Source of the DNA: Escherichia phage myPSH2311 | DNA length: 64,000 nt | Sequence record: MG976803.1 | Direction: 5' to 3' (one strand) | Shown here: positions 1,043 to 30,607 of the stretch, piece by piece | How the letters are laid out: the number at the start of each line of letters is the position of its first letter | Position numbering within the stretch: the first letter of the stretch is position 1 | Made by a program: the position numbers and the translations under genes | Notes under the pieces: generated by a model | The model's database searches: none | What the model saw: only the letters and a program-made list of their open reading frames with translations | What the model was told of the DNA's origin: nothing

Positions 1043-1279
1043 ATGAACATTAGGCATCAATTCAATAAAGAGCACGCCGCCGCTTTGGCGGCTCTCAATC
1101 TTAACGGCAGTCTTGACGCAGCATTAGAGGCATTGAAAGAAAGACTCATGACAGAGATCGTACAAACCGAACCTCATGAGAATAAGAAACGCGAAGATTG
1201 TTATCAAAAGTATAAAATGGTGGGCAGCTTAAAAGAGGTCATAAAAGCTGCTATCAATAGTGCAGGAGATGTTTCATAA
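1043..1279 (+). CDS. Hypothetical protein
   Basis: 78-aa ORF in operon context, TAA stop overlapping next start (ATGA). Confidence 0.3.
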   Translation: MNIRHQFNKEHAAALAALNLNGSLDAALEALKERLMTEIVQTEPHENKKREDCYQKYKMVGSLKEVIKAAINSAGDVS

Positions 1280-2364
1280 TGCCACAAGATAATTATATTG
1301 ACCCGAACGATTTTAAATCTTTCCTCCAACTGGATGACCTAAAAGGTTCTTTCAAAGAAGAACTCGGTCGATTAGAATCTGAACAAGAACCAGAAGTGGA
1401 CATTGACGATGAGTTCCCGGAAAAAGACGGTGACGATTTCGACTTTGATACCGACCTTCTCGGTGAAAGCGATGAGCTTAAGTTCGAAGATGAAGATGGT
1501 TGGGAAGATCGTGAAGAGGAAGGCGAAGTCGAACAAGATGAGGAAGAATTTGATGAATCAGACGAAAACTCTGAAGCAGATGAGGAAGACTCAAGCGATG
1601 CAGGATATGAAGATGATTCTGCTGACGGTGATGGTGAAGTCTTTGATGTAGACTACGAAACCGTTATCACCCTTCCTGATGGACGTGAGATGACTATTGA
1701 AGAACTTTCTAATGGCTATCTTACTGGTGCTGATATGACAGAGCGAGAATCAACTCTTCAGCGTCATATGGAAGCATTTGAGGAACGTGTAGTAGGTTTG
1801 AAGGATGTATTAGAATTAGCGTCTTTAGAAGCAGACCGAGTAATTGAAGATTATAACGGTTTTGATTGGGACAAGCTTGCAGTAGAAGATCCTCAAGCGT
1901 ATGTTGAAAACAAACGTTTCCTAGAGAAGTACACAGCTCGCCGTCAACAGCTTGAACAGGCTCAGGTCCGTATTAAGCAGGAAGCAGCAGCTAAAGAGCA
2001 GGAAGCTTTCCAAGCCAAGAGCATTGAATGTGTTAATATTCTGAAACGTGAGATTCCAAATTGGGATGAAAACTTATATCAAAACTTAATGCAATACGCA
2101 ATTGACTTAGGTGCTACTGAAGAAGAAGTATTGAAGGAAAACCGTCCGTCTATTTTCCTAGCTCTCCATAAAGCATACCAATTTGATAAAGGTAAGCAAC
2201 AGGTGATGGCTAAGATTAAACGTCCCGGTGCTCCACGCAAGGTTGTGAAGTCTGATGCTGCAAAGTCTCGTACTTCCAATAAGCCCGACAACGCTAAGGT
2301 TGCCAAGGCATTCGCAGAGGGTCGCGTTAGTCACGAAGACGCATTCAAATTCCTCGTAGATTAA
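1279..2364 (+). CDS. Highly acidic protein (D/E-rich N-terminal half, helical C-terminal half), scaffolding-like
   Basis: 361 aa; residues ~35-110 almost entirely D/E; position upstream of capsid. Confidence 0.4.
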   Translation: MPQDNYIDPNDFKSFLQLDDLKGSFKEELGRLESEQEPEVDIDDEFPEKDGDDFDFDTDLLGESDELKFEDEDGWEDREEEGEVEQDEEEFDESDENSEADEEDSSDAGYEDDSADGDGEVFDVDYETVITLPDGREMTIEELSNGYLTGADMTERESTLQRHMEAFEERVVGLKDVLELASLEADRVIEDYNGFDWDKLAVEDPQAYVENKRFLEKYTARRQQLEQAQVRIKQEAAAKEQEAFQAKSIECVNILKREIPNWDENLYQNLMQYAIDLGATEEEVLKENRPSIFLALHKAYQFDKGKQQVMAKIKRPGAPRKVVKSDAAKSRTSNKPDNAKVAKAFAEGRVSHEDAFKFLVD

Positions 2365-2405
2365 TCGACAAATTAAATTATTAATAGTATAGGAGCTAAC
2401 ATAAC

Positions 2406-3353
2406 ATGGCTAATCCAACTTTATTTGTATCGTATGACCAGAATGGTAAAAAACTTTCTTTTGCTAACTGGATTTCTGTTCTGTCCCCTCAGGATACCCC
2501 GTTCGTATCTATGACCGGTAAAGAGTCTATCAACCAGACTATCTTTAGCTGGCAGACCGATGCACTGGCAAGCGTTGACAGTAATAACGCACACGTCGAA
2601 GGCTCTCGTGCTGAAGACGGCGAAATGAAACCGACTGTTATCAAATCTAACGTTAATGGTCCTTTGGACGTGGTAACTGATTGCAGTGTCAAGTCTTGGC
2701 ATATGTCCATGTCCATGGCATTAAGCTATAAAGGCGCTTAGACATGCGTATTGCGTCTGAATGACACCCATGCAGCTCGTAAGACTGGTGCATTCCAGTT
2801 CCTGTGTGCTCACGGTGGTCTGGCTGGTGGCGTTGTTGACAAGACCAAGAATGGTCCTGCTGACCCGGACACTGGTGCAGTAACTGTTAAAGTTGCACAG
2901 AATGCTTCTAACCCGACCACTAACATTGGTTTCGACGAAGCTGATATCTTTGATATGACTCTGCAACTGTATACCGCTGGTTCTGAAGCAGATATCATCA
3001 TGATTAACCCGGCTCATGCTAAGATCTTTGCTGGTCTGCAAGAAAATACTCAGGGTTCACGTAAGCGTATCTTTGAGAACACCAAGCAGTTCATCTACGA
3101 AGTTAACAGCATCACTGACCCGCTGGGCCAGAGCTACAAAATCATCGTTAACCGTTGGATGCCTACCGATGCAGTTTACTTCTTCCGTAGCGCTGACTGG
3201 ACCCAGATGGTTCTACGTGCTCCGAAACGTACTGAACTGGCTAAAGACGGTTCTTACGAGAAGTGGATGATTGAAATGGAAGTTGGTCTGCGTCACCGCA
3301 ACCCGTATGCTTCCGGCGTTCTGTTCACTGCTGCGGGAAAGGTGGCGGCGTAA
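2406..3353 (+). CDS. Major capsid protein, interrupted by an in-frame TAG at 2739-2741
   Basis: ORFs 2406-2741 and 2751-3353 are in the same frame separated only by TAG; strong optimal-codon bias; RBS-like AGGAG upstream of 2406; terminator downstream. Confidence 0.6.
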
Positions 3354-3877
3354 CAGTAGACAGTGTGACTGTTAGCCCTGCGTCTTTAGCAAGCCTAGAG
3401 ACAGGGGCTACTCGGCAGTTCACTGCAAGCGCGGAGAAAAGTGATGGTTCTACCGAAACAACTGGCTTTACTTGGTCAGTGACAGGAGGTGGTTCTATCA
3501 CTCAGTCGGGTTTGTATACTGCCCCGAGTGCGTCTCAATCCACTGATGTATCCATTACTGCAACTTTAGAAGGTGTTTCTGGTACAGCAACCATTTCTGA
3601 AATTGTTGCTCCTACTCCTACTATTGTGAGTCGTGGGCCAATTACAGGTAAAGTAGGTGGTACTACCACTAACTTCAACACCATGTTTACTGTAACTAAT
3701 TCTATTGCTGATGATTACACACTTGTTGTAACTCCCGCAGAAGCTGGTACAATAAGCGCTAATAATTCGTTAAAATTAGATGCTGCTGCAAGTGGCGAAG
3801 TTACTGTTCAAGCAAGTTTGACAGCTGACCCGTCCATCAATGCAACATGCACTTTTACTGGTGTAACACCTGCTTAA
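3275..3877 (+). CDS. Ig-like (Big_2-type) domain ORF in -1 frame; probable C-terminal extension of capsid (long form) or decoration protein
   Basis: Translation has Big_2-like pattern (ATRQFTASAEK...TWSVTGGGSITQSGLYTAPSASQSTDVSITATLEGVSG); only start is GTG at 3365; overlaps capsid 3' end. Confidence 0.5.
   Translation, partial: NGSWSASPQPVCFRRSVHCCGKGGGVTVDSVTVSPASLASLETGATRQFTASAEKSDGSTETTGFTWSVTGGGSITQSGLYTAPSASQSTDVSITATLEGVSGTATISEIVAPTPTIVSRGPITGKVGGTTTNFNTMFTVTNSIADDYTLVVTPAEAGTISANNSLKLDAAASGEVTVQASLTADPSINATCTFTGVTPA
3335..3341 (+). other. Candidate programmed -1 ribosomal frameshift slippery heptamer G_GGA_AAG near capsid 3' end
   Basis: GGGAAAG in X_XXY_YYZ register relative to capsid frame, 10 nt before capsid TAA; -1 frame is open from 3275 into Ig-like ORF. 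Confidence 0.5.
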
Positions 3878-3884
3878 AAACTAG

Positions 3885-3912
3885 ACCCTGCCTTCGGGCG
3901 GGGTTTTTTTCG
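3885..3912 (+). terminator. Rho-independent terminator after capsid module
   Basis: ACCCTGCC-TTCG-GGCGGGGT stem-loop followed by T7 run. Confidence 0.7.
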
Positions 3913-3980
3913 TTTTAAGACCTATACAAGCTAGTGTGTAATGTATATTCTTTGTCTACATACAACAAGGAGGACAACCT

Positions 3981-4733
3981 ATGGCGATGCCAGATGTGGC
4001 CTATCCGATTAACACGTATGGCTGGCTTAAGAAAGCTGTTGCCTTGTGGGCCGATCGGGACGATGACGAATTTGTTAATCAAATTCCAAACTTTATTAAC
4101 TTTGCAGAGAAAGAGGTTTATCGTAACTTACGTATTCCTCCTCTGGAAAAAGAAGTGTATTTAGATATTAAAGATGGAGTGGCTTATATTCCTCCTGATT
4201 ACTTAGAAGCTCAATGGATGATGAGATCCAAAGATGGTACAATCTTCCAAGTAACATCTCCTGAGGAGATAAGCTATCGGAGACAGCACGGGGCTATTAA
4301 CTCTTCACATTGGAATAACCAACCTGTTAATTTTGCACGGTTTGGAGCACGTTTCTTATTCTATCCTAGAATAAATGCAGATGTTCCGCATTACCCTGAT
4401 GATGGTAGTCCGATTGTTCCAGCGGAGAGTTCGGTAATCTTGAGTTATTATGCAGATCCTCCAGAATTTCACGAAGATGGTGATACAAGTGCGATTCTTA
4501 CCATTGCACCAGAGCTTCTTTTATATTTTACTCTGAGGCATGCATGTTTATTTGTTCAAGATGATAATGGGGTTCAAAAGTGGTCTGCTTTAGGTAAGGC
4601 TATTCTTGACGAGCTAGTAGAACAGAATAAGAAACAAGAGTACTCAGGTTCACCTATTGCAATTCCGAATAACATGACTCGACTTCAGAGCAGCCTGCCT
4701 GATATTTATGGTATTCGTACTTCTCGTCTATAA
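3981..4733 (+). CDS. Virion structural protein (possible head-tail adaptor or tail protein)
   Basis: 250-aa ORF with AAGGAGGA RBS; position between capsid and tail fibre. Confidence 0.35.
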   Translation: MAMPDVAYPINTYGWLKKAVALWADRDDDEFVNQIPNFINFAEKEVYRNLRIPPLEKEVYLDIKDGVAYIPPDYLEAQWMMRSKDGTIFQVTSPEEISYRRQHGAINSSHWNNQPVNFARFGARFLFYPRINADVPHYPDDGSPIVPAESSVILSYYADPPEFHEDGDTSAILTIAPELLLYFTLRHACLFVQDDNGVQKWSALGKAILDELVEQNKKQEYSGSPIAIPNNMTRLQSSLPDIYGIRTSRL

Positions 4734-4742
4734 GGAGATAAT

Positions 4743-7733
4743 ATGATCGTTTATAACAACCAAGCACCTAAGAATGTTAACAATGTAGGACAATTTGGAG
4801 CTACTGAGGGAACTATTGGTGCTTATAAATCAGCAGCTGAATATGCAGCAGACTCTAAATATTGGGCATTGTTGTCCCAAACTAAATACTCCTCAGTAGA
4901 GGAGATTTTGGCTGAAGTAGAACGTCTGTATGCTCAAGGTCATCTACTGGAAGAAGACATTAAACAACTCAAGAGTGACTTTGAGTCACAAGAACAAGTG
5001 CTCTTAGGTTTGATTCAATCCACAGGAACTGCAATTGACAACACCAATGCAGCAACTGAGCTTTCAAAAGAGGCAACTCAAAACGTTCTAGCACAACTTG
5101 ACATTATCTCTAACATGACAGTTCAAACAACGCTTCTTCCTCCGGGAAGCCTAGCTACGGGGTCTTATGATAATGCAACAGGTGTCTTTGCTTTTGGTAT
5201 TCCAGAAGGTAAACCGGGGCGTGATGGTACTGACGGAACAATCGGTGATATTGGAAGCGTTCCTGTTGGTACCCCTGTTGTTGATGACTATGGTTTCTAT
5301 GTAGATAAAGATGATGGTGGTTTATACCGAGCTGACATGTCAGATATTGCCAACTTGATTCCATCTGTTCGATCTGTTTCAATCAATGGCGGCGCTGAAC
5401 AAACAGGTTCAGTGGTTTTTGATTCTGTCTCCACATTCAATGGACGTAAGGGTGCTGTAGTTCCTGCTACTGGAGACTACACAGCTGCTCAAGTGGGAGC
5501 TTTTAGTGTAACTAATAACCTATCCGAAATAACCGACACAAGTGCAGCTATTACAAATATTGGACTCGCTGAGCATGGGATTGGTAGCCCTACCTTAACC
5601 AAAGTGAAGGCTATGGACTGGCAAACATTTAATTTTGTCAATGGAGGTAACTATTCAGTATTAATGTCGAATATTACAAATGCCCCTGCTGAGATAAATT
5701 ATCCTGCCAATTATGGGTTATATCTTGAAGTCATTGGCGTAGTTACAGGAGGAGGTGAGGTACGAGTGGTGCCAATTGCATTGGGAATCCTCTCAATGGC
5801 ATATTTTCCGCTTGGCCAATGCGCTTATGCCGTGGCAAATGTGCCACAACTGCTGCATTGTGTGTAGCATCGCCAGCTTAGCGCTGCATCAATTGTACCT
5901 ATTACCAAAGGTGGTACAGGAGCTACTTCATCAGAGAATGCTCGACTAGCTCTAGTTGCAGCTAAGAGTGGTGATAACTCTGATATCACCTCGATGACCA
6001 ACAAGGTTACTTTCACACAATCTCCAGTAATTCCTGATGCTGTAGATGATAATGACGCGGTTGCTTTGAGACAGTTGCATACAAGTGAAGCAGATTTGCT
6101 GGCAAGGCTGAAAAGTAGTAATGCAGGTGAAGGTGCATCCCTTATTACCTTTGAAAATGGTAATTCTGTTGAGAGTCTTTCCAGTAAAGATGGGGCTAAA
6201 AACATTGGCAGTGGTGAGAGAAGTTTGCTTGTCCGTAACAACGACATTAAGCATTCAGGAGATTTCCCTACCTTACAAGCTGCGGTAAATGCATCGTTAC
6301 CAAAAAACGACTTAATTGTTTCCCCCGGTGAATACAGTGAAGCGATTACTATTGGTAGTACACAGTTAAAGGGTGTTGGTGGAGCCACGGTACTGAAAGC
6401 TCCGTCAAACTTTACAGACACTATTCAGGTTAAGGCATCTACGCCTCATTGGCAATTCCGCCATAGTGGTGGTTTTGCTATAGATGGTTCTGGGACAACC
6501 GGGGCTGTAGGTATTAGTTTTGACCCGACCGACCAATATGCTGGTCGTCACAACTTTAGTGACGTATACATCCATAACATTAACAAGGCCATTCAGAAAC
6601 CTTCCGGGAATATAGGTAATACATGGAAAGGCATTGGCGTGCAAGGTTGTGACTGGGGTTACTGGGCACAGTCTGCTTCTGAGATGCACTTAGGCTCTGA
6701 CACCCTTCAGAACATGCACTTTGATGGTATTAGCACTTACTGTGTTTACTTGAACGCTACAACAGGAGAAGCGCCTGGTACATTCGGAGGTGGTGTAGGC
6801 GGCTGGTGGATTAAAGATAGTATTATGGAAGCCTCTGGCGGTGGTGGTATTTACCTCAAGAACAAGGATGGTGACTGCCCTACTGCCCCATGTGGTGTAT
6901 CCAATGTATGGATGGAAGCTATCGCTACTACTCCAGCTATTAATGTAGATGGTGTATCTCAGAAGCCTCGTGTCCTTAAACTTATTGATACCAGTATCTT
7001 CTTTGCAGAGTACACATACCTTAATAACGTAGAGCTTCAGAACTCCAACCTTGTTACTTATGGCTGCCGAGTAGATAATTCAGATGGCCACATGGATATC
7101 TCTGTAGATGCCAACAGCAGTTTTGTGGCTGATCAATTGTACCTGAATGGTAGCTCCGGCAAAGATGTAATGGTACGTTCTGTAGCGGCTCAGACAGGCA
7201 AGATTGGGCAAAGCTGGTCACCTAATATGAGTATGCGTGGATACCTGCCGGAAGGATACATCTATCGTGTACCTGGTAATAAGCTGGTAGCTAAACCCTT
7301 CGATGGAGGTACTGCTGAATTTAGTGGTACGGCAAGCAGCACTGGGAGTTTGCAGCCACAAGGCCAGTTATCTCAGAGCTGCATGTACTTCGAAATCCCT
7401 GGTGCTGCTGAGTATGAGCTTACTGGTGCTGCATTTCAGATAACTTCCGGTAACTGGTATGTATGGGGCATTAGCACTGAACTGGTACAGGGAACCCCTA
7501 CAAACTTCCGCATCGGTGGAGATATCAATGTAGGTGAAGTATTTACTAAGGGGGGCCAGTGGGTGAGTACCTTTGGTGTAGCTCAGGCTAGTGCTTCCGG
7601 TTCAGTGAACCTGCGCCTAAGTACAGCCGGTACAGGCGGAGTAGTCCTACGCCTCGCTGATTACTTCGTAGCGGAGTTCACTACTCAGGCAGAGGCTATG
7701 CGCTTCGCTAATAGTAGACGTGCCCTGCGTTAA
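4743..7733 (+). CDS. Tail fibre/tailspike protein with in-frame TAG at 5865-5867; C-terminal part resembles a beta-helix depolymerase domain
   Basis: ORFs 4743-5867 and 5994-7733 share one frame; between TAG and first ATG there is no stop and no ATG/GTG/TTG, yet it encodes a tail-fibre-like PITKGGTGATSSENARLAL motif. Confidence 0.5.
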
Positions 7734-7757
7734 GAGTAATGACATTACTATAAGCAA

Positions 7758-7777
7758 AACCCCGCTTAGGCGGGGTT
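7758..7777 (+). terminator. Hairpin after tail fibre gene (weak terminator candidate)
   Basis: AACCCCGC-TTAG-GCGGGGTT stem-loop; no clean T-tract. Confidence 0.3.
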
Positions 7778-7959
7778 AGCTTCCATAGGGTAGTTGTTTT
7801 CCCTGATGTAGTGGAATTTATCGGAGACAATGAGCTGGCTGCTTTGTTGCATTCTGATAAATAGTTCATAACTCCCCTTCGAGGTCTTTAGTAGTAAGTA
7901 CCTTTAGTAAGTAATGAAACTAATATATCCCAAGAGGTTAATACATAGGAGACAGATAA

Positions 7960-9524: not shown

Positions 9525-12482
9525 ATGGCTCTTTACCCAATAAAATCTTTGGGTGCGGTTGGTGTTATTGCCGACCAATCTCCTACAGATCTGGCTCCTA
9601 ATGCATTTACTAATGCAATTAATGCTCGGTTTGTAGAACAGCGTGTGTTTAAGACGGGGGGCTCTGCCCCTCTTTCTTACGTTGAAAGTGATAAAGAAAT
9701 AAGACCATTATCATTCACTTCAATGCCTTTTGACTACTTCAGTGCTAACAATAGTTTCTTACTGGTAGGTACAGATAAGAGTATTTTTAGATTAAATAAT
9801 GAATCTATGGTTGATGTTAGTCGAAGAGTGGCTACAGTCACCAAAAAAGCAGTATCTTATGTCAAGATAAACCCCGTACTAACAGAGATCGTCCCTAAAG
9901 AAACATCTGTTATTATGAATCTTAATGAAAGCAAGGTTCTCGAGGTATCTCTTCTTCCAGAAGGTGTTGTTACTCCATCCCTTGTGTGGGAGGTTAGTAA
10001 TCCCTCCTATGGTTCAATATTAGTTGACCCTGATGATAGTAAGAAAGCTACATTGAGTGTCTTATCTAATGAGGGTAGCTTTACTGTCACTGTCTCTAAT
10101 GAAGATGAATCTGTAACTACCAGTATCTCCGTAAAGGTTGTTGATTCTGATTCTGGTATCTTCCTTAACCGGGACTCTGTTCAACTTCGTAAAGGTGGAA
10201 CAACCACACTTACAGCAACAACCAGCAAGACCCCACTAACGTGGACTTCTTCTAACCCGTCCATTATATCTGTGGCGCCTAATGGTGACACTACTACAGC
10301 AATATTAACCGCTCAAGGAGTAGGTAATGCACTGATAACAGTAAGCAATGGGTCTAAAACCTCGGAATGCTCTGTTAGTGTTATCAATCAGATTGACAGT
10401 ATATCTTTAAGTCAAACAGATTTACAAATTAACCGTGGGACGTCATATGTCTTATACTCTAGTTTAATTCCATCAAATGCTGCAAATCAGAGAATAACTT
10501 GGACTTCCTCTAACCCAAATATCGCCACTGTTTCGGGAACAGGTCTTCAAGGAACTGTCTCTGGGTTAACTGCTGGGTTTACAGTTATAACAGCAACTAC
10601 GGAAGAAGGTGAAAGGACCGCCACCTGTAACGTCAGGGTTGAGTTATCAAGTAGGGCCCTTTTTTCTGCTGCATCAGCTCCTTCTGAAGAACCTAGTTCT
10701 ACGGATTCAGATATTGACACCTCATCTATGTCAGAGGGCAATGCTTTTTATGACTATTCTATGGTTGATGGTGTTGAAGCCTATTCTATAAATGAAGTCA
10801 TGTCTAGGTCAACTCAGCTTGAATCCTTAACTCTTGACATTGTGGATACTGAAATTGATGTTGGAGATGAGTTAGTAATAACTGCAACGGCATTCCCTGA
10901 AGGGGAGTACCTTTATAATTGGGTGGTAGATCAGCCGGGGTATATATCCTCTACTTCCACTACCGACTCTTCCTTTACCTTAACTGCTATTAAGACTGGC
11001 AAAGTGAAGATAACCTGCACTGCTAGTCAAGTAGCTCGTAGAGACTATGAAGCATTTGAGGAGTATCCTTGGTATAATACGATTATCTCTAACTGCGCAG
11101 TATTCACTACTCACTACGAAACCCCTCAAGTAAAAGAGTTTGCCTCTGAGTATTTCACAGATCTTCCGGGGTGGGGTGAGCAGACAATAGTAGATGCTAA
11201 TGGGAACCCTTCTGTTGTAAAATATAACTGGAAGTGCGAAAGGATTCGTGCATTTAATAATCGTCTATTTGCTCTTAATATGCGAGAGTCTAATGCATCA
11301 GGAGTTACTACTCACTACCCTCTTCGACTTCGCTGGTCTAACTATGCTAATGAGAATAAGGCACCTACTTTATGGGATGATTTTGCTTATGATAGATATG
11401 TGACTTCAGATTTAGCAGCAAATGTTGTAGGTCAAACTGAGGCTCTAGAAAATGGATATGCCGGATACATAGATTTAGCTGACTCAAACGGTAGCTTAGT
11501 CGAAATTCTTCCTCTTAAGGATTATCTATTTATCTATACGGAGTTTGAGACTTACATTGGATCCCCAACTAACAACACATATCAACCTCTAATGTTCAAG
11601 AAGCTCTTCAACGACTCTGGAATCTTAGCACCTGAGTGTGTAGTTGAAGTTGAGAGCGGACATTTCGTGGTCACTCAGAATGATGTTATTCTACACAATG
11701 GTGCAACCAAGAAGTCTATTGCATCTAACAGGGTCAAGAATATGCTTATCAACGAAGTGTGTTTAGTAAACCCTTTGGCTACTAAAGTTCATCTTCACCA
11801 AGACAAGAAGGAAGTGTGGATTCTTTATGTAGGACCCGGAGAACCTGCTGGGAGCTTTGCTTGTACGAAAGCCGCTGTATGGAACTATGAGTTTGATACG
11901 TGGTCTTTCCGTACAATCCCATTCTCTCATTGTATTGGTTTAGTCGATCCTCCTACTTTAGAGAAAGGTCCTACTTGGGTTGATTTCCAAGAGTACACTT
12001 GGGATGACCCTTCAATCAGTGAACTTGTGTGGAGAAAGGATTCTACTAACTTCCGTCAGAGAGTTACTGTAGTAGGTTCTTGGATGAAAGGTTTTTACCA
12101 AGTGGACATAGGTCCTTATGACTACTCTTATGATAGGCTGAATGATATTGTTGTCAAAAAGCCCCTAGAGATGAGACTGGAAAGAACTGGTATAGATTTT
12201 GACAACGTAACTAATGAATGGAATCAAAAGCACATAAACCGATTCCGTCCACAAGTAACCGGGTCAGGTACGTACATATTCCAAGCTGGTGGTAGTCAGT
12301 ATTCGGATCAAGAGGATAGGCATATTCATAGTGAAAAGTCTTATACAATTGGTGTGGACAGACATGTAGGTGTCCGACTGAACCATCCGTATCTATTCTA
12401 TAATGTTATAGATAATGATGTTAACAGTAATGCAGCAATCAATGGTCTAACTATTGAGTTTGCTGTTGGCGGGCGAAGATAA
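9525..12482 (+). CDS. Large tail/virion protein with three tandem Ig-like (Big_2) domains
   Basis: 985 aa; repeated ~90-aa segments with W(T/E)SSNP...TA motif between residues ~120-370. Confidence 0.45.
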   Translation: MALYPIKSLGAVGVIADQSPTDLAPNAFTNAINARFVEQRVFKTGGSAPLSYVESDKEIRPLSFTSMPFDYFSANNSFLLVGTDKSIFRLNNESMVDVSRRVATVTKKAVSYVKINPVLTEIVPKETSVIMNLNESKVLEVSLLPEGVVTPSLVWEVSNPSYGSILVDPDDSKKATLSVLSNEGSFTVTVSNEDESVTTSISVKVVDSDSGIFLNRDSVQLRKGGTTTLTATTSKTPLTWTSSNPSIISVAPNGDTTTAILTAQGVGNALITVSNGSKTSECSVSVINQIDSISLSQTDLQINRGTSYVLYSSLIPSNAANQRITWTSSNPNIATVSGTGLQGTVSGLTAGFTVITATTEEGERTATCNVRVELSSRALFSAASAPSEEPSSTDSDIDTSSMSEGNAFYDYSMVDGVEAYSINEVMSRSTQLESLTLDIVDTEIDVGDELVITATAFPEGEYLYNWVVDQPGYISSTSTTDSSFTLTAIKTGKVKITCTASQVARRDYEAFEEYPWYNTIISNCAVFTTHYETPQVKEFASEYFTDLPGWGEQTIVDANGNPSVVKYNWKCERIRAFNNRLFALNMRESNASGVTTHYPLRLRWSNYANENKAPTLWDDFAYDRYVTSDLAANVVGQTEALENGYAGYIDLADSNGSLVEILPLKDYLFIYTEFETYIGSPTNNTYQPLMFKKLFNDSGILAPECVVEVESGHFVVTQNDVILHNGATKKSIASNRVKNMLINEVCLVNPLATKVHLHQDKKEVWILYVGPGEPAGSFACTKAAVWNYEFDTWSFRTIPFSHCIGLVDPPTLEKGPTWVDFQEYTWDDPSISELVWRKDSTNFRQRVTVVGSWMKGFYQVDIGPYDYSYDRLNDIVVKKPLEMRLERTGIDFDNVTNEWNQKHINRFRPQVTGSGTYIFQAGGSQYSDQEDRHIHSEKSYTIGVDRHVGVRLNHPYLFYNVIDNDVNSNAAINGLTIEFAVGGRR

Positions 12483-19112: not shown

Positions 19113-19460
19113 ATGGCTAACATTAAACCGTGGGAAGAAGCTTCCAAAGCTCCTGCGTATCTGAATGCCTCTCCGGAGCAACAAGCTCAAATGAGAGAAC
19201 AATATAAGGCAGCAGGTGGCTCTATTCCTGAGGAACAACCAGTAGCACAACCACAACAAGAAGAACGTGGTGCTATAGGTGAGTTTGCTCAAGGTGTGTC
19301 AAATGCTCTTCAATCTGGTGGTGCAAATATTGCAGCTAGTGCTGCTAAAGGTATTGGTGGTTTAGTTGAGATTGGTGAGAATCTAGCTGGAGCACAAACT
19401 AGTTATGGTAAGCGTATCCAAGAGAACTCTCAGAAAGTCAGTGTCATGAGTTGCTGGTGA
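19113..19460 (+). CDS. Small virion-associated protein
   Basis: ATG at 19113 preceded by AAAAGGAGA RBS (the longer ORF from 19068 lacks an RBS). Confidence 0.3.
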   Translation: MANIKPWEEASKAPAYLNASPEQQAQMREQYKAAGGSIPEEQPVAQPQQEERGAIGEFAQGVSNALQSGGANIAASAAKGIGGLVEIGENLAGAQTSYGKRIQENSQKVSVMSCW

Positions 19461-19467
19461 TATCGGT

Positions 19468-22260
19468 TTGACAGTTGCTAACCCATTGGCTGCTGCTGCT
19501 ATCATCGCAGGTCGTGAGACAGGTCGTGCATATGCAGACCAAACCCCTGAAGAGGGAGAAGATAAGTCTATTCTAGATGCAGCCTTAGTTGGTGGTGCTA
19601 ACTATGCGGCTCAGAGAATCCTTCCGGGTGCTGTCGGTACAGCTGAGTCCACACTTGGACGTATTGGTCAGAACGTTGCTAGTAACGCAGTGGCTGGTGC
19701 TAAAGGTGGCGCTCTTGTGGGTGCTGCTGAAGCTCAGAACAAGCATGGAGATGATACAACCTTTGCTAATGTATTAGAGGGTGCTATCGAAGAAGGTGCT
19801 ATGGGTGCTGCATTCGGTGGTGCAGTTGGTGGAGTTCATGGTTTGATTAGCCGTCCAGATTCTGCTGTCTTCAAGAATACTCCAGAGTATGCGAAGACTG
19901 ATATTGCTGCTGATGATGAACTAATTCGTAGTGCTAAGAATATTGATGAACTGAAAGAAGCTTACTCTAAAGCTGAAACTGCTAACGCTGCTTCTGCTCT
20001 GAATCTTCTGGATGAGAATGGATTCCGTATTACAGATGCTGTTGCTGTGGATTCTCCTGCTGCTCAGCGTATTCTTAATACTGACCAAGCTCGTGCTGAG
20101 AAAGCTGCTTCTGTTCAGAAAGAACATTCCAACATTCCGGGCCTTAATCCTTTAGCTTCTCCTGCTAAGACTCGTGGTAAAGCATTTGCTGATAATGAGC
20201 ACAACCAGAAGCAGGCTGTTGCTATGAAGGATGCAATGGCTGACTACACCAAAGACAACACGAAAGCTCTTACAGATGTTCTAGATAACCTAGACCGTGA
20301 ATTAACTTCTCTCCGAGCTTCTGGTGATTTTACTGGTAGTCCGATTGATATTAAGAATCGTACACAAGCTGACCGTGATTTCATTGATGCTTACAAGACT
20401 TTCTACAATGAAGCAAATCGATTCAAAGCTCGTGAAGGTGAAGATTTTAATAACTTTGTAGAGAAAGCTACTGAACTACAGAAGATGGCTGATAATGTTT
20501 CTCCAGAGATGAAGAAAGCTATCGGTGGGTTGAAGAAACTGAAAGGTATGCCTGAAGGTTTTAATCCTATTCAAGATGCTTATACTCTGAACAATACAGC
20601 TAAATTCATGAGCAACCAAGATCGTGGTTGGACTTCCTTGACTGATGATGGATTCCGTGAAGCTTCTTCACCTAGTCTGGTAATGAACACTCTTGGTGCT
20701 GCTAAGTATGCTCTGAATCGCTTCTCTTCTCAGCGTGCTCGTTCTCAACGTGTTAAGCAACAAGAATCTAACAGTGAAGCTATCCGCTCTCTTGCTCGTG
20801 GTGATTTGGAAGTTGCTCGTGCTAAATCTACTGCTGATGAAGCTCGTGCTAAGATGGAAGAAGAACCAGTTGTTGATGACATTAAATTTAAGACGCAAAA
20901 TGACGTAGAAACCGAACCGGTTCGGGAGCCTTCTTCTAGTACTGTGACGGAAGAAAATCTTCCTTCTTCTACTCCTCAAGAGACTCCTCTTACAGCTCGT
21001 GATTTAGTTGCGCAAAGACGCGCTATCCGTCAGGCTGAACAGCGTCGCGCTGAAGAAGAGGCATTGGCTGCTCAAGAAGCTCCGGTCGAACAGGCTCCAC
21101 AGGCTGAACCTCTCCCTGCTCGTAACCCTCTAGAGGAGCGTCGTGCAATGGAACAGCAACGTGCTCAAGAAGAGGCCGCACAGGCTCCAGAACCTACCGT
21201 AGAGGAACCAACAGTCAAAGCTGAGCCATTACCTGCCCGTGCTCCTAAAGCTCCTAAGGAAGCTGTACAGGACGTTAAACCGGCAAGTGGTGTAGAACGT
21301 TTAGCTGCTATGTCTAGTGCTGCTCGTCAGGCTACTAAAGATCGTGCAGAACGCTTTGCTCGTTCTCTGTACTCTAAGGCTGCTAAAGCTAAAGCTACTG
21401 CTGAAAACTTCTTGGCTTATAAAGGTGATCCTAAGGAACTGATGCGTCGTATTCGTCAGGAAGATAATGCTATCAACACTGAACGTCATGAAGAAATGGC
21501 TCGTAACCAGAGTTGCATGTCCGAAGCGGTTATCGAGGAACGTGGTCTGCCAGAAGACATTGCTACTAAGGCATTACGTGCTGAAGAGAAAGGTTTAGGT
21601 GGGAACGTAACTAACTTGGATAGTCTGAAACGTCGTGCTGAAAGGTTGTATCAGAAGCAGCGTGAAGATGAGTTTGATAGACTGTACCAACAAGCTCTAG
21701 AAGAGAATAAAGCTTTCGATAACAAGAATGCTCCTAAGCTGGTTGACCAGAAGAAAGAGCTTCAGTCTGAGATTGATACTTTGATTGATGCAGAACCTTT
21801 ACGTCCTGCTCAGAAAGACGCTATGCGTAAATTGATGAATGACTTTGTAGATGGAAAGTTTAAATCTTCAGAGAAGGCTGGTAGGGAAGAGGCTTTGGAA
21901 GTTGGTCAGATGAAGGATATTTGGGATGGGTTTATTAACACCTATAACAGAGAAGTGAATGCCTTCAACAAAGCTAACAAGAACTCTCAGTACGAAGCTG
22001 CTGCTAAGCATTTACAGGCTCGTGAAGAACGTCTTGCTACACTCAGGAAAAAGGCTCAGGCTCGTTCGGATGCTAAAGCTGCTGTTGAGAATGAACGTAA
22101 AACTCTAGAGGCTATTGCAGCTCAGAAGAGTGAGATTGAGAAGATGATGGAAGGTTTACCTAAACCTGTTCGTGAGGCTCAGGAATCTCGTACACTGAAA
22201 CAGTTGGCTGCTCACCACGATAAGAACTCTCCAGTTCCTCCAGAGAAGTTCCGTAGTTAA
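19468..22260 (+). CDS. Large A/E/K-rich internal virion/ejection protein (TTG start)
   Basis: 930 aa; internal AEPLPAR repeats; TTG at 19468 is the first start codon in frame after an upstream stop. Confidence 0.35.
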   Translation: MTVANPLAAAAIIAGRETGRAYADQTPEEGEDKSILDAALVGGANYAAQRILPGAVGTAESTLGRIGQNVASNAVAGAKGGALVGAAEAQNKHGDDTTFANVLEGAIEEGAMGAAFGGAVGGVHGLISRPDSAVFKNTPEYAKTDIAADDELIRSAKNIDELKEAYSKAETANAASALNLLDENGFRITDAVAVDSPAAQRILNTDQARAEKAASVQKEHSNIPGLNPLASPAKTRGKAFADNEHNQKQAVAMKDAMADYTKDNTKALTDVLDNLDRELTSLRASGDFTGSPIDIKNRTQADRDFIDAYKTFYNEANRFKAREGEDFNNFVEKATELQKMADNVSPEMKKAIGGLKKLKGMPEGFNPIQDAYTLNNTAKFMSNQDRGWTSLTDDGFREASSPSLVMNTLGAAKYALNRFSSQRARSQRVKQQESNSEAIRSLARGDLEVARAKSTADEARAKMEEEPVVDDIKFKTQNDVETEPVREPSSSTVTEENLPSSTPQETPLTARDLVAQRRAIRQAEQRRAEEEALAAQEAPVEQAPQAEPLPARNPLEERRAMEQQRAQEEAAQAPEPTVEEPTVKAEPLPARAPKAPKEAVQDVKPASGVERLAAMSSAARQATKDRAERFARSLYSKAAKAKATAENFLAYKGDPKELMRRIRQEDNAINTERHEEMARNQSCMSEAVIEERGLPEDIATKALRAEEKGLGGNVTNLDSLKRRAERLYQKQREDEFDRLYQQALEENKAFDNKNAPKLVDQKKELQSEIDTLIDAEPLRPAQKDAMRKLMNDFVDGKFKSSEKAGREEALEVGQMKDIWDGFINTYNREVNAFNKANKNSQYEAAAKHLQAREERLATLRKKAQARSDAKAAVENERKTLEAIAAQKSEIEKMMEGLPKPVREAQESRTLKQLAAHHDKNSPVPPEKFRS

Positions 22261-22427
22261 TTGCAAGCCTTTTAAGGCGCGCTGAAGCGGCTTTAAATGG
22301 CGCTAAATCGTGCAAAATGCCCATTGGGAGCCTGAATGGCGCGTGTTTTGCATAAGCCGGCGTTTGCCCAGTTCGTAAGGCTGGTATTTTGCTGTAAAGC
22401 GTGATTCATCGCCGCCTGATGCGTACT

Positions 22428-23535
22428 ATGGAAGATAAGGGCATATCTAGAGAGGATGCTGAAGCATTTGCTGGTTCCTATATGGATAACCGTTATGCAC
22501 TTCTTGAGAAGCCTATGACTCCTACTGAACATCAGAATGCTCGTTCTCGTATCGAAGCTGATGTTGAGAAGTTTGCTAAGAAGTACGAATCAATGACTCC
22601 TATCGAGAAAGAGATTGTTAAGGTTACTGGAGATACTGAAGGTAAGCTTGATAACTTGGATGCGGATACTAGGAAGGCTATTGAGGAGGCTCAGAAGGTT
22701 GACTCTGATATTAAGAAACTGCAAGAGGAAGAGTTGGAGATGGAGAAGATTCGTTCTGCTCTGCCTGATGATGAAAGATCTCAAGCAAATTCTGATATCT
22801 TGGAAAGCATTAAACAACAGGAAGAGGTCTTTGCTGATAAAGTAGAGAAAGCTTTCTTGAGTGGGAAGAGCTTGGATGAGTTGGCTAGTGTGGCTGAAGT
22901 TTTAGACAGGGTTCATGGTGCAGATAAGGCTGGTAACAACCGTCGCTTTGTACGTGCATTGCAGACTGCTGCTGAAAACAAGAAGAAGTATGGTGATAAT
23001 CCAGTAGCTTGGTTTAGTGCTGATGATTACTCTGCCATTGCTAAACTTGGTGCTTCTTCCGCAGGTGGTAACAAATCCAGAGCACTGGAGAAGATCTTTG
23101 GTTCTACAGCTGAACAGGCTAAGAGTAAGTTGCTTGGTAGGGATGATGTAGCGAAGATGAGACGTGTGATTGAAGAGAACCCTGATATCAAGATTCCTTC
23201 TTACAAGACAGGTCAGGTTTCCAGTCCCAGTCAATGGGCATGCATGGTCCAAAATCGGCCCCTAGGGTAACGTCGGAATCCGGTACGCTTATGCCCCTAA
23301 GTGCATTTTTTTGCTTGGTAGGGATGATGTAGCGAAGATGAGACGTGTGATTGAAGAGAACCCTGATATCAAGATTCCTTCTTACAAGACAACAAATCGT
23401 ACTGAGTACTTGCAGTTCTTGGAGAAGTTTAATGACGAAGGGAAGCCTAAGATTAAACGTGGCTCATTGTCAGAGAAGCTTGAACGCAGTAAGCGTCAAT
23501 CGAGACTCCGTGTAAGAGTTCGACCTAAGGAGTGA
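22428..23535 (+). CDS. Hypothetical late protein, reading frame broken by a 100-bp insert plus 81-bp duplication (23211-23391)
   Basis: ORF 22401-23270 ends inside the GC-rich insert; ORF 23311-23535 restarts with a duplicated LGRDDVAKMRRVIEENPDIKIPSYKT segment. Confidence 0.35.
23211..23310. other. GC-rich insert flanked by 81-bp perfect direct repeats (23130-23210 and 23311-23391)
   Basis: Direct comparison of the two repeat copies; insert has different composition from flanks. Confidence 0.6.
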
Positions 23536-23812
23536 TAAAAGAAAAGCCCAGGGCTCGTTCAAGTCAAATGATGGGCTAGTCAATTAAGCCCCTTGGGCAT
23601 AGCTGGCAATGCTAGTCACAACTTCTTCATTCATATACCCTCCTAGATTGTGTTTATAAAATTAGTAAGTTTCTCTTCACTTTCATCAAAAGCTTTTCCA
23701 GCTGCTTCCATCTCCCAAGTATCGGCATTGTCAATAAAGCTCTGAGCTTCTAATAGGTCGTGGATTAAGTCGAAGAGTTTATTTTTATCTGCTTGTGTGA
23801 TCATGTCAGTTC

Positions 23813-24079
23813 CTAGATTAAATCGTAATACTGAATAATGTCAGAGAGTTTGAACTCTCGAATCTCATCTTTCTCTACATCTATCGCTGTCATAATCCAA
23901 CAAGGTTTGCCACCGTTATGAAAACGGGAGCTAGCAACGGAGGTTCGGAGTGGAATAACGGACCGGTCAGCAACCTCGCCTCTCCAATTGCGATAGCGAA
24001 AGCGAAGCACTTGTTGCGTAGATTTTTGATCATCACTCATTTCCTTTTTTGAATTGTTTTCTTGCATCATTATTGGCAA
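23813..24079 (-). CDS. Hypothetical protein
   Basis: 88-aa ORF at the distal end of the minus-strand module. Confidence 0.3.
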   Translation of the reverse strand: MPIMMQENNSKKEMSDDQKSTQQVLRFRYRNWRGEVADRSVIPLRTSVASSRFHNGGKPCWIMTAIDVEKDEIREFKLSDIIQYYDLI

Positions 24080-24366
24080 TGCTTAACGTAACTAGCTTGG
24101 GCTTCATGGTCAAGAGGAACTATAGGCTCTATGTGGTCAATAGCCATATCCTTTACAGGGTGGTCAGAACCACACATGGCACACTTAAAGTGCATTGCCA
24201 GTCTACCTGTCTTTGGATTAATCTTCTGCTCTGTCTTGGCGTCTGCTAGTGCATCGAACATGGGCTTCCACTTTCTAGTCAGAGAACGAATCCCTGACTT
24301 GATAAAAGAATTGTAACGAGCTTCAGTCCACATTCCAGAGCATCTAGTCTTCTCAGCCTTCGCCAT
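24070..24366 (-). CDS. HNH endonuclease
   Basis: CAMCGSDHPVKDMAIDHIEPIVPLDH: Cys pair plus DH...N/H pattern typical of HNH nucleases. Confidence 0.5.
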   Translation of the reverse strand: MAKAEKTRCSGMWTEARYNSFIKSGIRSLTRKWKPMFDALADAKTEQKINPKTGRLAMHFKCAMCGSDHPVKDMAIDHIEPIVPLDHEAQASYVKHCQ

Positions 24367-24739
24367 AACCTACACTCATATCATCTTCTTCCCATACACG
24401 TTTATCTACTCGGTGTGATACTTTTTCACGTTTTTCTTTAATATAGCGGTTGCCTAATTCGTGGCTATATTTAATACGCTGCTCTTTACGAGATTCACGG
24501 TTGGAGGAGTTTTCATCATATGAACGATAATCAAATTTACCCATTATAATATCCTTATTACCAAGATTTATCTAACCATGTCCAGTCGAACAGGTCTTCC
24601 GGAGTCTGACCAACAAAGAGCAGCCGAGCATTCTCAAGCATCTTCTCTTCATCTTCAGTATCGAACTTCTTATAATATTCCATTCGTACTATATGATACA
24701 TGGTCCAAGCCTGCATTGAACCGTAAAGCCCTTAGGCTG

Positions 24740-25366
24740 TTAGTTACCACCCCACATAACCTCTTTACGTTCCCCACATCCGGGGATGTTATCCGTACCA
24801 TCTCCAATCAACATTTGATAGAAGAAGTTTTGCCATGAAACTAAATCAGATACGTAATGAGGAGGGACTTCTTTCTGTCTTTCTCCACAAGCCCAGCGAT
24901 AATGCCATCCGGGAGTTATCAACAAATCCTTGTCTCTAGTACAGATGATAGTATTCTTATCCCTACGTTGCCTTTCAGCTAGTGCATCATCAGCCTCTCT
25001 CCCAAAGACCTCAATGTATTCGTACTTGGCTTTAATGTAATCACCAACGTTTTGCCAGTGAAAAGGTCTTTCTCCGGGAGGTCTGTTTGCCTTGTAGTCT
25101 TGTTGCTTAGCAACATCGAAACGGAAGTTACCGCCTTCGCTGAAGTAGAATACAACCTTACTACAACCCGAGCGAGCTATAATTGTATCAATCTTGTACT
25201 GAAGTCGTTCAATCATGAAATTGTAATCAACTGGAACACGTCCTGTGTCAAGGAAGGGATGCTCCTGAGTAAGAGCACCCACTTCATACCGAAGAACGTC
25301 AGCGTCCACTATAGCAACTTCAGGGAGCTTAACTTCTTCCATAAATATCATCCTGAGCTTGAGCAA
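24740..25366 (-). CDS. 5'-3' exonuclease/flap endonuclease family protein (N-terminal nuclease domain)
   Basis: FGREADDALA motif (EADD acidic cluster typical of FEN/5'-exo family). Confidence 0.45.
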   Translation of the reverse strand: MLKLRMIFMEEVKLPEVAIVDADVLRYEVGALTQEHPFLDTGRVPVDYNFMIERLQYKIDTIIARSGCSKVVFYFSEGGNFRFDVAKQQDYKANRPPGERPFHWQNVGDYIKAKYEYIEVFGREADDALAERQRRDKNTIICTRDKDLLITPGWHYRWACGERQKEVPPHYVSDLVSWQNFFYQMLIGDGTDNIPGCGERKEVMWGGN

Positions 25367-26228: not shown

Positions 26229-27470
<1,242 letters not shown>

Positions 27471-27716
27471 AATGCATCTCTTTATAAATAGTTTCCGTGT
27501 TCTTCTTCCAGTTAGATAAACCGGTAAGAACCCTCTGAGCAACTTCATCAGCTGCCCTACTTCTTTCAATCTCTAACTCTTGCTGGTGCTTCTCTTTGTC
27601 CAGATTACTGCTGTCTGTTTGGTACTCGTTAAACTTCATACCACCAAAGAATACAAGAGCTGAGAAAATGATAAACCCTATATTATCACTTAATGTACTT
27701 TGCATACTGTCTCCAA

Positions 27717-27742
27717 CGAAAAAAGCCACCCGAAGGTGGCTA
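27717..27742 (-). terminator. Rho-independent terminator downstream of SSB gene
   Basis: Minus-strand GCCACC-UUCG-GGUGGC hairpin followed by U6. Confidence 0.7.
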
Positions 27743-27762
27743 AGCTATAACAAGGAGAGTTA

Positions 27763-28509
27763 TCAGAAAGGCGAATCGTTATCATCTTCATAAGTAGAAG
27801 CAGGCTCTTTATCAATCGTAGGAATTGAAGGAGTAGCTTCTTTCTGTTCTGTTTCAGAAGCACGAGTAATTTCACGACCAGCCAGAGGCATGTTCTTAGC
27901 GTCATTAGCTTGAGTAAGCAGATTGCGCTGGAACGGGAACATCAGTTGATAAGATGCTACGTTCTCGTCGGTTTCAGCATACGGTTCGAAGAATACCAGA
28001 GGACTACGAGCTTCACCAACTGCTGCACGATATTTAGTTGGGATTGGAGAAATGGTCTTGATGGAGTTTTTAACTTCACCAGCTTTGTTAGTGTAAGAGT
28101 TAACCAGAATGTTAACAGGCTGACCTAACAGAACATCCTTGAACCAAGACAGATCACCTTTCAGTGCTTGAATACTTGGGTCAACCATCTTGCAAAGATC
28201 AAGAATACCAGAGTTCTTAGCTCGTGGGTTTACATCATAGCTCTTGAACTGGCAAGCCGGACGTGGTTCTAATGCCTTACCATCGGAATCTTTACCAGTA
28301 GCATCAACACCAATCAGCTCGAAAGCTAAATCCATACGGAAAGCCGGATTCTTAGGAGTTACTGCTTTGGTCTTCGGGTCAATCCAAGGGTCACGATTGT
28401 GAACACCCAAACCTACTACACGAACGATACGTGCTTCGTATTCACCATCAGGGATTACATCGTAGTTGGATTTACGGGAAGAAGTTGCGATAGTTGGAAT
28501 CATAGACAT
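27763..28509 (-). CDS. Single-stranded DNA-binding protein (T7 gp2.5-like)
   Basis: 248 aa with acidic C-terminal tail ending ...YEDDNDSPF (acidic tail plus terminal Phe as in gp2.5-type SSBs). Confidence 0.45.
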   Translation of the reverse strand: MSMIPTIATSSRKSNYDVIPDGEYEARIVRVVGLGVHNRDPWIDPKTKAVTPKNPAFRMDLAFELIGVDATGKDSDGKALEPRPACQFKSYDVNPRAKNSGILDLCKMVDPSIQALKGDLSWFKDVLLGQPVNILVNSYTNKAGEVKNSIKTISPIPTKYRAAVGEARSPLVFFEPYAETDENVASYQLMFPFQRNLLTQANDAKNMPLAGREITRASETEQKEATPSIPTIDKEPASTYEDDNDSPF

Positions 28510-29071
28510 AGTGTAATTTCCTTATTTAATTTGAAAGATTGTTGCTCTCTTTGAGCGGTTATGTATAATATACATTACATATATAGTGTAGGAACTACCG
28601 GAAGGTAGTAGGTTTTGTCCAAACAAAAGTCTCTTTAGAATTATTTGTTGGAGATTGTCTCTTATAAACCCGAGACTGCCTAGCAGTTACATAAGCTCTA
28701 GCTTTTTCTGTAGCTGCATACTTATGGTTAAATTTCATGGTAGTATATCTCTAAGTGCTATAATGTATATAAGTTATAGCTGATAAAGTTATTGCACGGG
28801 ACTGACGACGATAAGGCGCAGACGACAATCTCTCATAAGTTTGTAAGAAATTGAGAGACTACCGGAAGGGCAGGAGCCACCTGCGAGATAAAAATAGAGA
28901 ATTAAGGAATCCTTGATTTAGGTTGTAGGGACTCCTAGGGACTTTGATTCTCTATTTAAAAGAATATTAATTACTTATTACCTAAATAATTAACTAACTT
29001 ACTTAAACCAAATTCAATAAGAATAGATAAAAAGATTATTCCTAAGAAAGCTAAAAAGTAAAGGATATAAG
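28510..29071. promoter_or_regulatory. AT-rich intergenic region with TATAAT-like boxes and a duplicated ACTACCGGAAGG motif
   Basis: Motif at 28594-28605 and 28858-28869; no ORF over 60 aa. Confidence 0.3.
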
Positions 29072-29201
29072 TTACCATTCAAGTAAACCTTTAAAGTTAG
29101 ATTTTTCTACTATCCTCTGATAACGAAGATTAGAATCAGCTTGTTTCTTTAACATCTCATTATACTGATCTCTGATAGAGTCTTTATGTACTACAGGTTC
29201 T

Positions 29202-29705
29202 TTAAATAACGAGATCTTGTTCTTTTCTTCTTTCATCAAAGACCTTCCTAATCTCTTGCAGAGAAACAGCTTTATAGTTAATTTGCTCCATTGATGTACA
29301 GAAATATCTCCAATCATCAATTACGTGGTTATGAGTATGAGCATAAATATTAAACTTCCCTCTCATCTCATCAGTGTGAATAGGAATATGAGTTACCCAA
29401 AACTCTTTATATTTATAATCACCAGAGATTCTACGGAAGACTTTCATCATATCAGGGAGAAGTTCTAACCTGTCATGGTTCCCTAAGACTAGATGCTTCT
29501 CTCCTCTTACTTCAGCGATGATATCAAGGGCATACTTTTCAAACACCCAATCACCGGTAAAGAAGATTTTATCACGTTTAGTTACATGATCAAATGCAGC
29601 TAGGATTGCTTTGTCATGTTCTTCGATGGTTTTAAATTGCTTACGAAAACTACAGATGTTGCGATGGCCTAAGTGACCATCCCCTGCAAAATAAACTTCA
29701 GCCAT
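29202..29705 (-). CDS. Calcineurin-like metallophosphoesterase
   Basis: GDGHLGH, FTGDW and LVLGNHD motifs (GDxHG...GDxxDRG...GNH[DE]). Confidence 0.6.
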   Translation of the reverse strand: MAEVYFAGDGHLGHRNICSFRKQFKTIEEHDKAILAAFDHVTKRDKIFFTGDWVFEKYALDIIAEVRGEKHLVLGNHDRLELLPDMMKVFRRISGDYKYKEFWVTHIPIHTDEMRGKFNIYAHTHNHVIDDWRYFCTSMEQINYKAVSLQEIRKVFDERRKEQDLVI

Positions 29706-29714
29706 AAAGACCTC

Positions 29715-29825
29715 TTAGATAGTTAATTTGTGATCTTCCTCCGCTCTGTTTCTAACAGAGACGGCTTCTTCTAGGGTTGAGAAAGTTCCTAGGTATTTAG
29801 TTTTCGTTGAAAGGCTTAAGGCTTT
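29715..29825 (-). CDS. AP2-like DNA-binding domain fragment (remnant of HNH/AP2 homing-endonuclease-like gene)
   Basis: Translation KYLGTFSTLEEAVSVRNRAEEDH resembles the Y.G.F.T.EEA AP2 signature; upstream part replaced by GC-rich sequence. Confidence 0.3.
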   Translation of the reverse strand, partial: KALSLSTKTKYLGTFSTLEEAVSVRNRAEEDHKLTI

Positions 29826-30607
29826 TGGCATAGCTGCAAAATGGGCCCGTTAATATGACCCGTTAAAGGCTTTTTTGGCATGCGTAAAAGGCTTGCTTAA
29901 ATTTCCTGCCTCATCACCCCGCCTGCATTTTGTTCCGTTGCGAATTCTCCAGAACACTTTCCCAGATGATAAATCACAAACAAAGAACTCATCCAGAAGA
30001 TCTTCTATCATATCATGCAACCATCGCAAGTTAAGTCACCTAGCAGGGACAGGGAAAGTAATCTGGATTGCTCATCGCTGTATAGTTGATCAATCTCTTC
30101 TTTAAGTTTTGCCAACTCCATAAAGTTAATGAGCTGACCATGTTCGAGGCAGTCTGTTTTTAGTACGAACAAAACTTCAGCGTTGGTTGAGTCTTCACTT
30201 GAGTATTTATCAATGTATTCCATTTTTATGCCACATCTCCTTGTTTGTTGTTAATAATATCCAGTGCTGTATAAGCTTTACCTGTTCCTAAGTATTCCAA
30301 AACTGGAGGACTCTTCTTTTCTTCAGCGACTACATAAGGTGTGATCTTCCCTTTCAGTACAGCCTGAGATGCTTTAGCACTGTCTTCAGAGGTATGAATA
30401 GTAGTAAGCCCTTTCTTTCCAATTCTATAAGTGTGAACCCAAATCATTCTTCTTCCTCATATTCCCAATTTCTTTCATAATATCCAGAGTTATAGTTTAG
30501 GGCGCACTTCTCGGCCTCTTCTATGTCGTCGGTGTTTAGGATATTCACCCACCCTCCAGCTTCATCAAAACCTTCTTCTTCCTCGTTAATCCATACACTA
30601 TATTTCT

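Follow-up and report, generated by a model that had tools for sequence, protein, structure and literature searches.

Stop-containing, non-coding stretches of deviant composition that interrupt a continuous reading frame are known from the translational bypass of phage T4 gene 60 and from the GC-rich 'byp' inserts of Magnusiomyces mitochondria; in both cases the stretch is an insertion, with matched take-off and landing codons and intact flanks. Among the Kuraviruses, the tail-fibre protein (TFP) of Escherichia phage ES17 was cloned, expressed and purified as a single protein, which binds heparan-sulfate proteoglycans (PMC7885116). Here we analyse the corresponding gene in a stretch of 64,000 nucleotides (nt) from Escherichia phage myPSH2311 (MG976803.1; the whole stretch is called the window, and coordinates refer to it), in which an in-frame TAG codon lies within a short patch of GC-richer sequence. 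Very probably, both the TAG and the patch arose during assembly or gap filling of the sequence record and do not exist in the phage itself.

The patch in the tail-fibre gene

The open reading frame (ORF) that starts with the ATG at 4743 stops at the TAG at 5865-5867, and the following 42 in-frame codons (5868-5993, translated as ...SIVPITKGGTGATSSENARLALVAAKSGDNSDITSM) contain neither a stop nor an ATG, GTG or TTG; the next ATG is found at 5994. The original prediction had reported this arrangement correctly. It had also proposed that the patch is a GC-rich insert, and that the codons behind the TAG belong to the tail-fibre gene and are probably translated.

The window was found to be a Kuravirus with 99-100% identity to the Escherichia phages myPSH1131 and ES17. 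A megablast search with 4600-7800 against 50,697 phage records returned myPSH1131 (MG983840.1) at 100.0% and ES17 (MN508615.2) at 99.9% identity, both as matches in two pieces with 97% query coverage, in which the span on the record was 75 nt longer than the query. The alignment showed that the window is identical to both phages up to 5774 and again from 5884 or 5888: the patch runs from 5775 to 5883 (109 nt) by megablast, or to 5887 (113 nt) if the CTG at 5884-5886 is taken as a chance match. Compared with myPSH1131, the upstream flank (4743-5774) has no mismatch in 1032 nt and encodes an identical protein, and the downstream flank (5888-7733) has no mismatch in 1846 nt and encodes 615 identical amino acids. 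Over 5884-7733 the sole DNA mismatch is at 5887, the boundary of the patch.

Between these flanks the sequence is unrelated to that of the relatives. Global alignment of the patch with the segment it replaces gave a score of 8.0, compared with 6.4 ± 2.7 for shuffled sequences (z = 0.6); a diverged copy of the replaced segment was rejected, as the alignment score is at the shuffle level. At the protein level, the 62 residues GTNNNNYYSVFSVSWTGGVGSRVFTVREELSSARPVTISQGGTGATTASAARTKLGLGLVSTE give way to IALGILSMAYFPLGQCAYAVANVPQLLHCV, the stop and HRQLSAA. In Shigella phage SGF2 the lost residues have a conserved counterpart of about 45% identity (GSRxFxVREELSSAxPVTxSQGGTGATTA), and the patch peptide aligned to nothing. 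The comparison with related phages, which the original prediction had suggested as a check, found no patch in them and genuine coding sequence at its position: in the window, 109-113 nt of unrelated sequence substitute for 184-188 nt of conserved coding sequence, which is not an insertion within the gene.

The replacement entails a net loss of 75 nt (188 to 113), a multiple of three, and this is the sole reason why the downstream frame lines up with the upstream frame. The probability of at least one stop in 37 codons is 0.85 at the base composition of the patches, so that a stop inside the patch is expected by chance. The open frame that follows the TAG is itself no product of chance, since from 5888 onward the true tail-fibre gene continues.

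In ES17 the tail fibre is encoded by one coding sequence (CDS) of 3066 nt (ES17_14, 'tail fibers protein', ES17-TFP, QPL11059.1), and in the DNA of myPSH1131 the frame is open across 1021 codons. The protein has 1021 amino acids in ES17, in myPSH1131 and in a Logan assembly, and is truncated to 916 in a phage recorded as 'J1'. The 62 amino acids missing from the window are present, in an uninterrupted frame, in all three public records and in the Logan assembly. Exact look-up located the intact 1021-residue protein in NCBI (ES17), with a cluster that includes the Logan assembly and 'J1' proteins; neither product of the two ORFs of the window was found by exact look-up in a collection of 15 billion proteins. 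In SGF2 (944 amino acids) and XT32 (1071 amino acids), two more distant Kuraviruses, one long tail-fibre CDS directly follows a structural gene of 753 nt, and the frames of ES17, myPSH1131, J1, the Logan assembly, SGF2 and XT32 are all uninterrupted at the position of the TAG.

With respect to the original prediction, its view of coding continuity held, while the translated TAG and the insert did not. The codons 5868-5993 are indeed part of the tail-fibre coding sequence, with the true continuation beginning at 5888, and 4743-5867 and 5994-7733 belong to one gene, which is a single frame in ES17, myPSH1131, J1 and the Logan assembly. A biologically meaningful stop that is translated through is unsupported, the TAG lying inside non-homologous filler in a gene whose relatives lack it. 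The GC-rich character of the region is real and only modest, the GC content being 0.50-0.51 over 5750-5899 against 0.42 for the whole window.

Patches across the window and their probable origin

Alignment of the whole window with ES17 and myPSH1131 revealed about 27 short segments covered by neither relative (Table 1). Twelve of these patches are 94-102 nt long, six of them exactly 100 nt. The remaining patches, of 7-169 nt, stand for longer stretches of 51-280 nt within otherwise identical sequence; the patch in the tail-fibre gene, which also replaces a longer stretch inside identical sequence, belongs to this variable-length kind. Five of the patches of about 100 nt are flanked by duplicated sequence. 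Three are abutted by it directly, one of them being the 96-nt patch at 60657-60752, where 60434-60656 and 60753-60975 form a 223-nt duplication of about 95% identity; the other two (46655-46748 and 48052-48147) lie between copies of a 1.2-kb repeat. Patches of fixed length between duplicated flanks are typical of overlapping or variant contigs joined in series through a linker. Along the alignment of the window, the reference coordinates show jumps and overlaps.

The patches share a composition that sets them apart from the phage. When a third-order Markov model was trained on the window outside the patches, almost all of them fell in the lowest 0.5% of real 100-mers, and the patch in the tail-fibre gene was a compositional outlier (z = -2.8). 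Pairs of shared 6-mers among patches numbered 1221 against 525 ± 29 in shuffles, and pairs of shared 8-mers 183 against 35 ± 8; AATGCG, TTGGCC and GCATGC are 80-140-fold enriched per kb relative to the remainder of the window. In a leave-one-out test the patch in the tail-fibre gene scored +0.017 bit per base under the model of the other patches, above the 99th percentile of real 100-mers (-0.036). The flavour common to this patch and the other inserts, remarked upon in the original prediction, is borne out in both composition and word vocabulary. No consensus of the patches was obtained, as all-against-all BLAST yielded only two matches, of 12-13 nt. On the plus strand the patches have more G than C in both halves of the window, whereas in the real DNA the skew changes from G > C to C > G at the point where the genes change orientation.

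BLAST and exact-pattern searches with the patch in the tail-fibre gene found no match in phages, Escherichia coli genomes, plasmids, Joint Genome Institute (JGI) metagenomes or GTDB genomes. It was also unmatched in IMG/VR, from which the intact ES17 segment was equally absent, so that IMG/VR lacks the lineage and this control is uninformative. The other patches, concatenated to 1.87 kb, gave no match in the phage or plasmid collections.

The damage done by the patches extends to essential genes. Besides the portal, major capsid and primase/helicase genes (Table 1), the gene for the large ejection protein carries a frameshift plus stops, and the exonuclease and ThyX genes carry frameshifts. 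With stops or frameshifts in all six genes, the genome as written could not be viable.

Beside the observed replacement, lack of homology, patch class and damage to essential genes, we infer that the patches stand where runs of N, or unresolved gaps, of a reference-guided pseudomolecule once stood. The window would be a scaffold-like reconstruction of an ES17/myPSH1131-type Kuravirus, with strain-variant contigs in tandem. At about 27 places, both in gaps inside contigs and at joins between contigs, the true sequence would be missing and unrelated letters would have taken its place. One such filler, 5775-5887, would have landed in the long tail-fibre gene, with 113 nt standing for 188 nt and the frame resuming behind them, and the non-coding noise of the filler would have brought the stop codon. 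The real phage would then make one tail-fibre protein of 1021 amino acids with no stop at this position, and tail-fibre peptides from its virions would include some from GTNNNNYYSVFSVSWTGGVGSR... and none from IALGILSMAYFPLGQCAYAVANVPQLLHCV. As for gap sequence in general, the patch is unsupported by independent data and incompatible with the function of the gene. The letters of the patches seem invented, and unlike natural sequence, as in GCATGCATGCATGCAT, AGTCGTAGTCGTAG and AAATTGGCGCCCAAAATTGG. For the published genome of myPSH1131, CLC was used for de novo assembly and CONTIGuator for the subsequent ordering along a reference phage (PMC6200275), a procedure which yields pseudomolecules with linker gaps.

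Several points weigh against this explanation. The window holds no N and no other non-ACGT character, that is, no gap written as N, and a further step must have turned the gaps into A, C, G and T. A spacer of 100 Ns, the convention for a gap whose size is not known, is placed between overlapping contigs by ABACAS and CONTIGuator; the CONTIGuator paper gives no number. The combination of fixed linker length and duplicated contig ends is present in the class of patches and not at the patch in the tail-fibre gene itself, which is 109-113 nt and not 100 nt long, has no flanking duplication and falls into the subclass of variable length, with its less certain origin. Its resemblance to the other patches, at +0.017 bit per base, is also weaker than that of most of them.

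Table 1. Positions of the tail-fibre gene parts, the upstream gene and the patches in the window
Feature	Position	Strand	Description and basis
Genuine 5' part of the long tail-fibre gene	4743-5774	+	Codons 1-344; identity to myPSH1131 (MG983840.1), alignment to ES17_14
Non-homologous filler patch	5775-5887	none	Replaces ES17 11109-11296 or myPSH1131 6441-6628 (184-188 nt, 62 conserved amino acids)
In-frame TAG inside the filler patch	5865-5867	+	Patch extends from about 90 nt upstream to about 20 nt downstream of the TAG
Genuine 3' part of the tail-fibre gene	5888-7733	+	ES17 codons 407-1021 and stop; identity to myPSH1131
Upstream virion structural gene, intact	3981-4733	+	250 amino acids; ORF list, syntenic CDS of 753 nt in ES17, myPSH1131, SGF2 and XT32
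Patch in the portal gene	584-595	none	12 nt replace 76 nt, frameshift
Patch in the major capsid gene	2656-2754	none	99 nt replace 210 nt, in-frame stop
Patch in the primase/helicase gene	44080-44245		Gene on minus strand; about 169 nt replace 280 nt, three in-frame stops
Patch of exactly 100 nt	23211-23310	none	Abutted by an exact 81-nt duplication, 23130-23210 = 23311-23391
Patch of exactly 100 nt	44895-44994	none	Abutted by an exact 110-nt duplication, 44785-44894 = 44995-45104
Patches, 584 to 24743	584-595, 2656-2754, 19436-19449, 21511-21535, 22264-22403, 23211-23310, 23550-23617, 24072-24099, 24708-24743		
Patches, 26403 to 44634	26403-26428, 29805-29910, 35473-35574, 37367-37466, 39360-39459, 40697-40796, 41280-41362, 44080-44245, 44623-44634		
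Patches, 44895 to 60752	44895-44994, 46655-46748, 48052-48147, 49815-49911, 54315-54332, 55837-55936, 56136-56142, 59376-59502, 60657-60752		

The region 45435-49814 contains the ES17 region of 52.0-53.7 kb, which carries an ATP-grasp-type gene, three times in tandem; the copies are 92-99.8% identical, with patches of about 95 nt between them, and are probably strain-variant contigs set side by side by reference-guided scaffolding. The GenBank record of myPSH1131 likewise has three ATP-grasp fragments, and in it annotation or sequence is lacking for the portal gene and for most of the capsid gene. The segments 1065-2763, 22404-23210 and 37584-39359 are shared by the window and ES17 and absent from the GenBank record of myPSH1131, which identifies the window as a separate reconstruction and not as that record with patches added.

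Alternative explanations

A genuine variant of the phage, in which recombination or an indel put foreign DNA in place of 188 nt of the tail-fibre gene, is very unlikely. In its favour, tail-fibre genes are hot spots of recombination, tailspike genes of unrelated phages share 80-84% identity with the downstream part of this one, and the Kuraviruses SU10 and SGF2 have two consecutive fibre genes (SU10 gp12/gp13, PMC9509320); the outcome could be a pseudogene, or an N-terminal anchor with a separate receptor-binding part, loosely like the proximal and distal fibres gp12 and gp13 of SU10. Against such an exchange, the 100% identity of the flanks extends to the very edge of the patch, the patch has no match to known DNA in the collections searched, and it is one of about 27 that also destroy portal, capsid and replication genes. 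A separate downstream protein would, moreover, lack a start codon for 42 codons; its first ATG, at 5994, is situated midway through a conserved motif, and reading by eye revealed no obvious Shine-Dalgarno sequence before it.

The form of this idea in which the record is entirely faithful, with a fibre gene interrupted by non-templated or foreign DNA and the receptor-binding part made through TAG readthrough or reinitiation, is in our judgement extremely improbable. If true, it would point to a process that replaces short segments of the genome with GC-richer filler and has left many such scars.

Programmed recoding, that is, readthrough of the TAG by means of a suppressor tRNA or a stimulatory RNA, or bypass as in T4 gene 60, would produce one fusion protein. 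The reading frames on either side of the TAG agree, and a conserved fibre motif is encoded behind it; the match of the frames, however, follows from the net difference of 75 nt in a replacement that also removed 62 conserved residues. Readthrough and suppression were rejected, because the stop is found in no homologue and neither a suppressor tRNA nor a stimulatory structure was detected: the tRNA scan found 0 tRNA genes in the window, the Rfam scan of the whole window found no family, and RNA folding in and after the patch gave no excess of structure (z = -1.2, -0.24 for 5868-5960 and -0.71 for 5750-5895). Bypass was rejected because sequence was replaced and not inserted, and because matching take-off and landing codons are absent: the TAG is preceded by GTG, and 5868-5993 contains no GTG in frame. 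Recoding is therefore hardly credible.

We attach next to no probability to a small mobile element present in many copies, such as a GC-rich insert resembling a miniature inverted-repeat transposable element (MITE), a group I/II intron or an intein-coding insert: many patches of similar composition are indeed scattered through the window, but they have no consensus beyond the two short BLAST matches, each stands in place of sequence of differing length and is no addition to it, their strand composition does not follow gene orientation, their lengths cluster at exactly 100 nt, and a repeat search found no terminal inverted repeats, target-site duplications or other flanking repeats at the patch in the tail-fibre gene, so that a repeated MITE-like element was rejected. 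A group I/II intron was rejected as well, since no intron model matched at the Rfam gathering threshold and 62 exon codons are missing where a precise insertion between intact exons would be expected. Such introns are also longer than 113 nt.

Related genes and comparison with known systems

The gene upstream of the tail fibre by its position would be the equivalent of the adaptor gene gp11 of SU10, judging from the SU10 gene order (PMC9509320). A look-up of contigs encoding its product found none on record. A Pfam scan of ES17-TFP and of the ORFs of the window gave no family, and a homologue search with the 374-residue ORF returned no more than four distant relatives of the N-terminal part, ES17 itself not being among them.

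The downstream part of the tail-fibre gene, 5888-7733, carries a GGTGAT motif and a tailspike-like receptor-binding part. Over its central part, 6189-6627, the DNA is 80-84% identical to tailspike genes of unrelated phages, among them Kayfunavirus LM33_P1 and siphovirus VB_EcoS-Golestan. This similarity reflects the exchange of receptor-binding modules, which has also been described for such proteins (PMC7885116). ES17 has two units with the GGTGAT motif, the first of which is removed by the patch in the window (compare 5888-5990). In XT32 the fibre (1178-4393 of the XT32 stretch compared) contains several tandem copies of a unit of about 30 amino acids, GLGDVSVENIVPISKGGTGAINTTIARSNL, and the number of linker repeats varies naturally among Kuraviruses.

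In the GenBank record of myPSH1131 the 1021-codon tail-fibre ORF is intact (MG983840.1, 5409-8474) and carries no CDS annotation. The record MZ417522.1, 'Mycolicibacterium phage J1' (24,953 bp, host M. smegmatis), is 100% identical to the window over 4600-7357 and is likely to be mislabelled or contaminated.

With the TAG and its patch explained as an artefact of the record, the locus holds no novel biology. The real gene is of a well-studied type, that of the heparan sulfate-binding tail-fibre protein of ES17 (PMC7885116), and is intact in public records. The window is unfit for mining recoding events, split genes or 'GC-rich inserts': about 27 of its segments are not phage sequence, and the ORF boundaries, stops and anomalies of composition that adjoin them are spurious. 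Any finding that touches the patches of Table 1 probably stems from this artefact as well.

With the patch left out of account, the gene shows what defines the Kuravirus long tail fibre of the ES17-TFP type, namely a single long ORF directly after the gene in the adaptor position, an N-terminal part that is conserved, and a linker with the GGTGAT motif that precedes the receptor-binding part. It agrees with the gene of ES17 and myPSH1131 in its position after the structural gene of 753 nt and in its sequence outside the patch, which is identical to that of myPSH1131 and, as protein, differs from ES17 by two residues. It departs from both in that their frame runs through 1021 codons, whereas the window has 37 unrelated codons, including the TAG, in place of 62.

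The likeness to T4 gene 60 and to the 'byp' inserts ends with the stop-containing stretch of deviant composition in a continuous frame. In the window coding sequence has been deleted, no codon pair and no structural signal accompany the stretch, and the relatives have no such element.

The linkers of ABACAS/CONTIGuator-style scaffolds differ from the patches in being written as N and not as A, C, G and T, and from the patch in the tail-fibre gene in length, this one being of the variable kind. The patches of the window share with them the fixed lengths of about 100 nt, the duplicated contig ends and the jumps and overlaps in reference coordinates.

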